Assembly: GCF_003334255.1 (NCBI RefSeq)
Contig: NZ_QOWU01000094.1
Origin: Escherichia coli
GTDB taxonomy: Bacteria > Pseudomonadota > Gammaproteobacteria > Enterobacterales > Enterobacteriaceae
Length of the DNA: 7,711 bases
Reading direction: 5' to 3' (one strand)
Shown here: piece after piece, positions 5,505 through 5,648 of the stretch
Position numbering within the stretch: position 1 is the stretch's first letter
How the letters are laid out: each line of letters opens with the position of its first letter
Made by a program: the position numbers and the translations under genes
Notes under the pieces: generated by a model
Seen by the model: the letters and a program-made list of their open reading frames with translations, nothing else
The model's database searches: none
What the model was told of the DNA's origin: nothing

Positions 5505-5558
5505 GCTATATTAAAGCTTTAATTTCAGGCCCCATCGGATCACACATGGAGAGTTTTT

Positions 5559-5648
5559 ATGAATAACCCCGTCTGTCTTGATGACTGGTTGATTGGCTTT
5601 AAAAGCTTATGCTGTACTTTGGCCGTAATAGCTCTGCTAATAATATAA
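5559..5648 (+). CDS. Candidate small hydrophobic protein, 29 aa (hypothetical)
   Basis: Manual translation gives [33 protein letters not shown] lies 7 nt upstream of the ATG. Hydrophobic C-terminal half. Located between cspF and the 5797..5820 terminator. No homology evidence. Confidence 0.3.

Follow-up and report, generated by a model that had tools for sequence, protein, structure and literature searches.

Identity of the open reading frame downstream of cspF

Does the short hydrophobic open reading frame (ORF) that follows cspF encode a genuine protein, and if so, what kind of protein is it? We analyzed a stretch of 7,711 nucleotides of Escherichia coli DNA (the window), which corresponds to the Qin prophage of E. 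coli K-12, with position 1 at approximately NC_000913.3 1636564. The features of the locus are listed in Table 1. The initial annotation had called the 29-codon ORF unannotated, and this word was wrong because the ORF is identical to the annotated gene ynfS (b4750) of NC_000913.3. The window positions of ynfS contain the same 90 bases as NC_000913.3 1642122..1642211, and 29 of 29 residues are identical to those of YP_009518791.1. The peptide's sequence cluster includes the UniProt name "Protein YnfS, YNFS_ECOLI", and the K-12 protein and the product of the window ORF do not differ in peptide or in site, 3' of cspF in Qin. PGAP calls the gene in other sampled E. coli genomes as "hypothetical protein" WP_120795389.1. 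When the peptide, padded with two upstream in-frame codons, was used as the hmmscan query, YnfS matched the Pfam family PF23697 (YnfS) over its full length (model positions 1-29 of 29, E 6.4e-23). The stop codon TAA (5646..5648) is directly followed by a second in-frame TAA (TAA TAA, 5646..5651). No relative of YnfS was found in the PDB.

Table 1. Features at and around ynfS (positions in the window).
Feature	Positions	Strand	Description and source
ynfU	4242..4412	+	Gene for a small putative zinc-binding protein; cassette member; PF23499 (YnfU) is beside cspB and cspF in Citrobacter
cspB	4776..4991	-	Cassette member; cspA-type 5' UTR thermoregulator at 4760..5152 (RF01766, 158.8 bits)
cspF (b1558)	5292..5504	+	Cold-shock-like gene, TTG start; RefSeq annotation and ORF list
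cspF-ynfS spacer	5505..5558	+	54 nt; Shine-Dalgarno sequence of ynfS, GGAGAG, at 5548..5553
ynfS (b4750)	5559..5648	+	29 codons and TAA; single membrane helix predicted at about residues 10-29
3' untranslated stretch	5649..5796	+	148 nt, AT-rich; highest variability within the locus
Bidirectional intrinsic terminator	5797..5820	both	Hairpin core CCCGCTCATCAGCGGG; terminator scan
Probable pR' of Qin	5851..5895	-	-35 TTTGCA 5895..5890, -10 TAAAAT 5871..5866, AACGATGGG 5859..5851; promoter scan
ydfT (quuQ)	5926..6678	-	Q-type antiterminator; RefSeq annotation

Translation of ynfS has been demonstrated in published experiments. VanOrsdel et al. (2018; PMC6001520) included ynfS, with the same coordinates and sequence, in Table 1 of a set of 36 small proteins detected with a chromosomal SPA tag, and noted that a ribosome-profiling screen with tetracycline had likewise scored the gene as positive (PMC6001520). 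Weaver et al. (2019; bioRxiv 10.1101/511675) reported strong ynfS start peaks with retapamulin and Onc112 and a moderate level of the tagged protein. Both the protein and the initiation peaks occur in ordinary LB cultures of unstressed cells (PMC6001520; 10.1101/511675). The two experiments proposed in the initial annotation, initiation-stalled ribosome profiling and a chromosomal tag, had therefore already been published with positive results, and its suspicion that the ORF was already catalogued among the small proteins of Qin was borne out. A 2024 survey keeps ynfS among the uncharacterised Qin genes (PMC11551758). A literature query on b4750 returned unrelated papers only, and no report of membrane fractionation, operon mapping or a phenotype of YnfS was found in the searchable literature.

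These results show that the 29-codon ORF is the already known gene ynfS, so that the original observation was correct and not new. With its annotation, its experimentally shown translation and its curated Pfam family, ynfS is a genuine protein-coding gene that RefSeq, UniProt and Pfam have listed for years. What the present analysis adds is a signal of selection between genera, an invariant motif, a four-gene cassette that is also found outside prophages, and a common deletion allele. Taken as a whole, we consider it quite probable that the genuine gene ynfS is co-transcribed with cspF, encodes a non-toxic protein with a single inner-membrane helix, and is a member of a cargo cassette.

Properties of the YnfS peptide

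The sequence around the start codon was as first described: GGAG at 5548..5551 is followed by 7 nt (AGTTTTT) and by ATG at 5559, a functional-looking Shine-Dalgarno arrangement for an ORF whose translation is now supported by the tag and the start peaks. Among ORFs of 20-60 codons in the 7.7-kb window, ynfS alone had both a Shine-Dalgarno core and a hydropathy of 2.4 or more over 19 residues. In shuffled windows, a mean of 0.015 ORFs shared these two properties. The ynfS ORF is more than a chance feature.

The hydrophobicity noted in the initial annotation was also confirmed. The mean Kyte-Doolittle hydropathy of residues 11-29 was 2.46, and that of two other E. coli-type variants tested was about 2.2; these values would suffice for one membrane helix provided that K15 is at the interface. 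The window of 19-20 residues passes the Kyte-Doolittle criterion (2.46) but includes K15; the uncharged run comprises only 14 residues (16-29), and a full span must take in K15. The net charge of the peptide is -1. In the homologue of Citrobacter amalonaticus, the tail contains two Arg residues and its hydropathy is only 1.22, and the membrane helix is therefore not uniformly conserved.

Judging from its sequence, YnfS is most likely a single-span inner-membrane peptide that is co-transcribed with cspF. In the model that we propose, YnfS would insert in the inner membrane as one helix, from about W10 to I29. At the cytoplasmic face would be its short acidic N-terminus and K15, the latter at the interface, and the conserved N-terminal half L-x-D-W-L-x-G-x-K would be at the same face. 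YnfS may then act as a small membrane protein that modulates a partner or the membrane, and would not be a toxin. AcrZ, MgtS and KdpF are validated examples of small inner-membrane proteins with a single span in E. coli. YnfS is like them in that it has fewer than 50 residues, one hydrophobic helix (predicted in the case of YnfS) and its own Shine-Dalgarno sequence, and in that it was detected with a chromosomal SPA tag. Unlike them, it has a short hydrophobic run that ends exactly at the C-terminus, and it shares no homology with them.

Transcription of the cspF-ynfS locus

As had been stated, ynfS lies between cspF and the bidirectional terminator, with no terminator intervening. On the + strand of the spacer, our scan detected neither terminator-like nor promoter-like sites. 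The only block of the spacer common to Escherichia and Citrobacter was GGAGAGTTT. Upstream of cspF, TATAGT (5256..5261) and an AAGGA Shine-Dalgarno sequence were conserved across genera. The cspF promoter, with TATAGT as the probable -10 element, would drive a joint cspF-ynfS transcript, from which ynfS would be translated independently via its own conserved GGAGAG. On the + strand, this transcript would end at the terminator. The 3' stretch between ynfS and the terminator was variable at 28 of 148 sites, carried a 7-nt indel in addition, and was not conserved in Citrobacter. The terminator itself is a G+C-rich hairpin, and we regard it as bidirectional because on either strand the hairpin is followed by a T-run. 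Only 1 of its 24 sites was variable, and it was kept in the deletion variants described below.

The initial annotation had further proposed that late transcription passes through the ORF in antisense, and the finding of a lambda-like pR' on the - strand, upstream of the terminator, agrees with this. The Qin element reads TTTGCA-18-TAAAAT, 6 nt, AACGATGGG and was nearly invariant among haplotypes. In lambda, pR' has TAAATT, 6 nt and AACGATGGG, and the Qin -10 hexamer, spacing and early pause element match it. These sequence features make the element a probable late promoter (pR') for Qin that includes an early pause element of the lambda type, and on the - strand the terminator probably doubles as tR' for the late operon. 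Once modified by Q, polymerase would pass leftwards beyond the terminator and transcribe ynfS and cspF in antisense. Only about 40-65 nt separate the probable pR' from the bidirectional terminator downstream of it.

Selection on ynfS between genera and variation within E. coli

Homologues of YnfS were searched for with CspF homologues as anchors, and the neighbouring DNA was then fetched. Homologues were found directly 3' of cspF in lambdoid prophages of Citrobacter freundii (MNQTVYLSDWLTGLKSLCSTIAMTILLFI) and on the chromosome of C. braakii (MYQKIYLNDWLTGLKSSCCTLIVTLLVFI). These homologues and that of C. amalonaticus were all exactly 29 residues long. The GGAGAGTTT block before the start, which contains the Shine-Dalgarno sequence, was invariant in the C. 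freundii and C. braakii DNA. Otherwise, the spacer and the 3' region showed about the identity expected for unrelated AT-rich DNA between Escherichia and Citrobacter. Between the genera, Nei-Gojobori counts for three pairs gave a pS of 0.57-0.76 for ynfS vs a pN of 0.21-0.29, that is, a dN/dS of about 0.23 (Fisher p 0.001-0.003). Nine positions of YnfS were invariant: M1, L7, D9, W10, L11, G13, K15, C18 and T20. This pattern of substitutions indicates that YnfS is under purifying selection at the amino-acid level between genera, at the level of the family.

In the C. freundii prophages (loci L078-L080, 3220..3366), an in-frame ATG is located 6 nt past the cspF stop and would give a YnfS of 48 residues. 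This upstream ATG has no Shine-Dalgarno sequence, and neither E. coli nor C. braakii conserves it; we therefore take the 29-residue YnfS as the conserved form.

Variation within E. coli-type prophages was examined in 62 IMG/VR loci anchored on the 3' end of cspF, together with reference loci. In the cspF-anchored loci, all 10 variable sites of ynfS (10/10) change the protein. A peptide-anchored tally of ynfS gave 1 synonymous and 9 nonsynonymous variant codons, vs 18 synonymous and 9 nonsynonymous variant codons of cspF in the same sequences (Fisher p 0.003). The start codon was lost at one locus (L063), and an allele with a stop codon at K15 was present at two (L042 and L058). Diversity was 0.11 in the ORF, and the flanks were not significantly more diverse (p 0.17). 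Because of the 1:9 counts and the start-loss and K15stop alleles, constraint appears weak or invisible at the depth of E. coli. From such counts (0-1 synonymous vs 9-10 nonsynonymous), we had first read the peptide as unconstrained. This reading was dropped as the main conclusion after the inter-genus dN/dS of about 0.23 was obtained, and it remains as a caveat. The shallow E. coli sample may mostly consist of rare variants, or may reflect relaxed constraint in decaying prophages.

The gene was also lost by deletion. A recurrent deletion of about 255 bp (about 5495..5750), represented by E. coli EC476 (locus L006) and phage Tritos (locus L009), removes ynfS together with the stop codon of cspF and most of the 3' stretch. 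Of 1630 E. coli genomes with a match to this region, about 220 (about 14%) carry the deletion, as does phage Tritos. PGAP then annotates cspF as a pseudogene. In E. coli DG342-2 (locus L004, 2788..3144), cspF has an internal stop (Q31*), and the downstream ynfS is intact and annotated.

The variation within E. coli bears on the idea that ynfS is translated without a selected peptide function, as a chance ORF in the cspF 3' UTR reached by pervasive translation. The excess of nonsynonymous variant codons with the nonsense and start-loss alleles, a diversity comparable to that of the flanks, the frequent deletion and the patchy presence of ynfS among cspF loci would all fit this idea. However, it does not account for the inter-genus dN/dS, for the nine invariant residues, or for the invariance of the 29-codon length and of the Shine-Dalgarno, start and stop positions while both flanks diverge, and a hydrophobic ORF with a Shine-Dalgarno sequence was improbable by chance. 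We therefore regard a merely accidental ORF as unlikely and prefer a selected YnfS peptide.

Comparison of YnfS with type I toxins

The initial annotation had pointed to a resemblance to type I toxin peptides. In a type I toxin-antitoxin pair, YnfS would be the small membrane-damaging toxin, and an antisense RNA would restrain its translation. Its size and hydrophobic tail are like those of TisB-, Ibs- or Zor-type peptides, Qin also carries hokD and relBE, and a promoter-like site on the - strand (TAAACA-16-TATATT, 5669->5642) is directed into ynfS. However, the sequence containing this site lacks conservation in Citrobacter, promoter-like sites were not enriched (6 vs 3.4 +/- 1.8 expected), and no - strand terminator was found between 5640 and 5260. 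The Rfam search of 5200..5900 gave no match to an sRNA or any other RNA family. Searches of YnfS against NCBIfam and PADLOC yielded no family match even at E values up to 10. The fold of the ynfS mRNA was unremarkable (z -1.1), and the Shine-Dalgarno sequence was unpaired in the centroid structure.

Type I toxins are generally cationic. YnfS, with its negative net charge, is not, and in the LB cultures mentioned above it was readily detected and its initiation peaks were strong. In comparison with Hok, Ldr, TisB, Ibs, ShoB and Zor, YnfS is alike in size and hydrophobicity only. It differs in having no family match, no antitoxin RNA, an open ribosome-binding site, constitutive detectable translation and a negative charge. 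We found no report of toxicity on overexpression of YnfS in the searchable literature. The resemblance proposed at first thus did not hold beyond size and hydrophobicity: no toxin family and no conserved antisense promoter or sRNA was found, the Shine-Dalgarno sequence is open, and the protein is made without stress. A type I toxin is very unlikely, and a small membrane protein of another kind is the reading that we retain.

Distribution of ynfS and its cassette

A phmmer search of 1.84 billion representatives, with YnfS padded by one residue as the query, matched six proteins, namely five E. coli variants and one C. amalonaticus homologue. One of the five E. coli variants has a single-codon deletion, and the other four are truncated, frameshifted or otherwise altered. 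In a tblastn search of 50,697 phage records, only five records, all of Escherichia lambdoid phages, were matched. A profile scan 3' of cspF relatives revealed no homologue in C. farmeri, a Citrobacter sp., E. fergusonii, Salmonella, Kluyvera or Klebsiella, and no ynfS-like ORF was found downstream of the K-12 paralogue cspH. A degenerate peptide pattern searched in 100,044 species genomes hit one contig, labelled as a Citrobacter MAG. Its 98% identity to Qin makes this contig uninformative on divergence. The true Citrobacter homologues carry T at position 12, and the pattern proved too strict to find them. No match to patterns of the C. amalonaticus variant was found in viral or metagenome contigs. 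The YnfS family is narrow. In Klebsiella michiganensis (loci L092/L093, 2789..2959), another small gene of 54-56 residues, with no Pfam match, lies 3' of a cspF homologue.

This distribution also bears on the possibility that the act of translating ynfS matters and the peptide does not, with ribosomes guarding the 3' region of the cspF mRNA from Rho, RNases or antisense late RNA. The ORF does interrupt an otherwise 290-nt untranslated tail before the terminator, and convergent late transcription is predicted there, but many cspF homologues have no ynfS, 148 nt are still untranslated past ynfS, and the amino acids are conserved through synonymous change, which a positional role does not need. 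Such a role is highly improbable, and the preferred explanation is that the YnfS peptide itself is selected.

Where ynfS is present, it directly follows cspF in the cassette ynfU-cspB-cspF-ynfS. The order Q-ynfS-cspF-cspB-ynfU-holin is shared by Qin, phage 2H10 and the C. freundii prophages. In C. braakii, the cassette (loci L084/L085, 1924..3368) is located between arsRB/FMN reductase genes and tRNA genes beside pgsA-uvrC, and no phage gene was found within 3 kb of this site. Because the C. braakii copy is at a non-prophage site, the cassette appears to be mobile cargo and not core phage machinery. These findings suggest a transfer of the cassette between chromosomes and lambdoid phages. In the lambdoid prophages, ynfS has the features of a cargo gene ("moron"): it lies between Q and holin, it is absent from phage Tritos, and its transcription unit is bounded by the terminator 5797..5820. 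From the sequence upstream of cspF, we infer that the ynfS-bearing cargo has its own promoter. Functionally, ynfS would be part of the ynfU-cspB-cspF-ynfS cargo and not of the phage lytic programme, and it is dispensable for the phage.

The same observations leave an extremely small probability that YnfS serves the phage as a membrane factor expressed in lysogens, for instance in superinfection exclusion or in the timing of lysis: the cargo slot between Q and holin, the strand expressed in lysogens and the predicted membrane peptide would suit it, but the cassette also occurs at the non-prophage site of C. braakii, the isolated phage Tritos has no ynfS, and no significant PHROG family was found (the only match had E 0.12).

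Relation of YnfS to the cold-shock genes and to other small proteins

The selection between genera, the cspF-tied cassette outside prophages and the dispensability of ynfS for the phage together lead us to favour a membrane role on the host side, in connection with the Csp genes, over a role in toxicity or lysis. More specifically, YnfS might be a companion of CspB and CspF, a conserved membrane peptide that links Csp-type RNA chaperones to a membrane process. We put this forward tentatively, as a rather unlikely proposal in this precise form. Such a companion would have the motif L-x-D-W-L-x-G-x-K-x-x-C-x-T and a hydrophobic tail, and it travels with ynfU, cspB and cspF in a single cassette.

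Like ynfS, the genes of YnfR, YnfQ/YmcF, YmcE and GnsA/GnsB are short and lie beside Csp-family genes, in the same prophage or at the cspG/cspH locus. None of these proteins, however, resembles YnfS in sequence. For ymcE and gnsA/gnsB, small genes beside csp genes, a link of the proposed kind is reported, the membrane process being lipid composition. YnfR-SPA increases after cold shock (PMC6001520), whereas no report of cold induction was found for YnfS. In the window, the cspA-type thermoregulator was found for cspB and cspI only, and not for cspF. The strong Rfam match of cspI covers its 5' UTR at 1865..2250 on the - strand (112.8 bits), and that of cspB, also on the - strand, is the one given in Table 1.

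Two minor features were recorded elsewhere in the window. A Trp_leader match in Rfam at 4469..4553 on the - strand was weak (21.7 bits, E 0.82, gathering score 41) and is most likely due to chance. Within the cspI 5' UTR region, a 43-codon hydrophobic ATG ORF (2257..2126 on the - strand, MVFWFVTNLSEAVIVIILLFVPLEISLLVFLSDIFFRTILPKG) has a hydropathy of 3.02. This ORF has no Shine-Dalgarno sequence, is unannotated, and is probably a chance occurrence.
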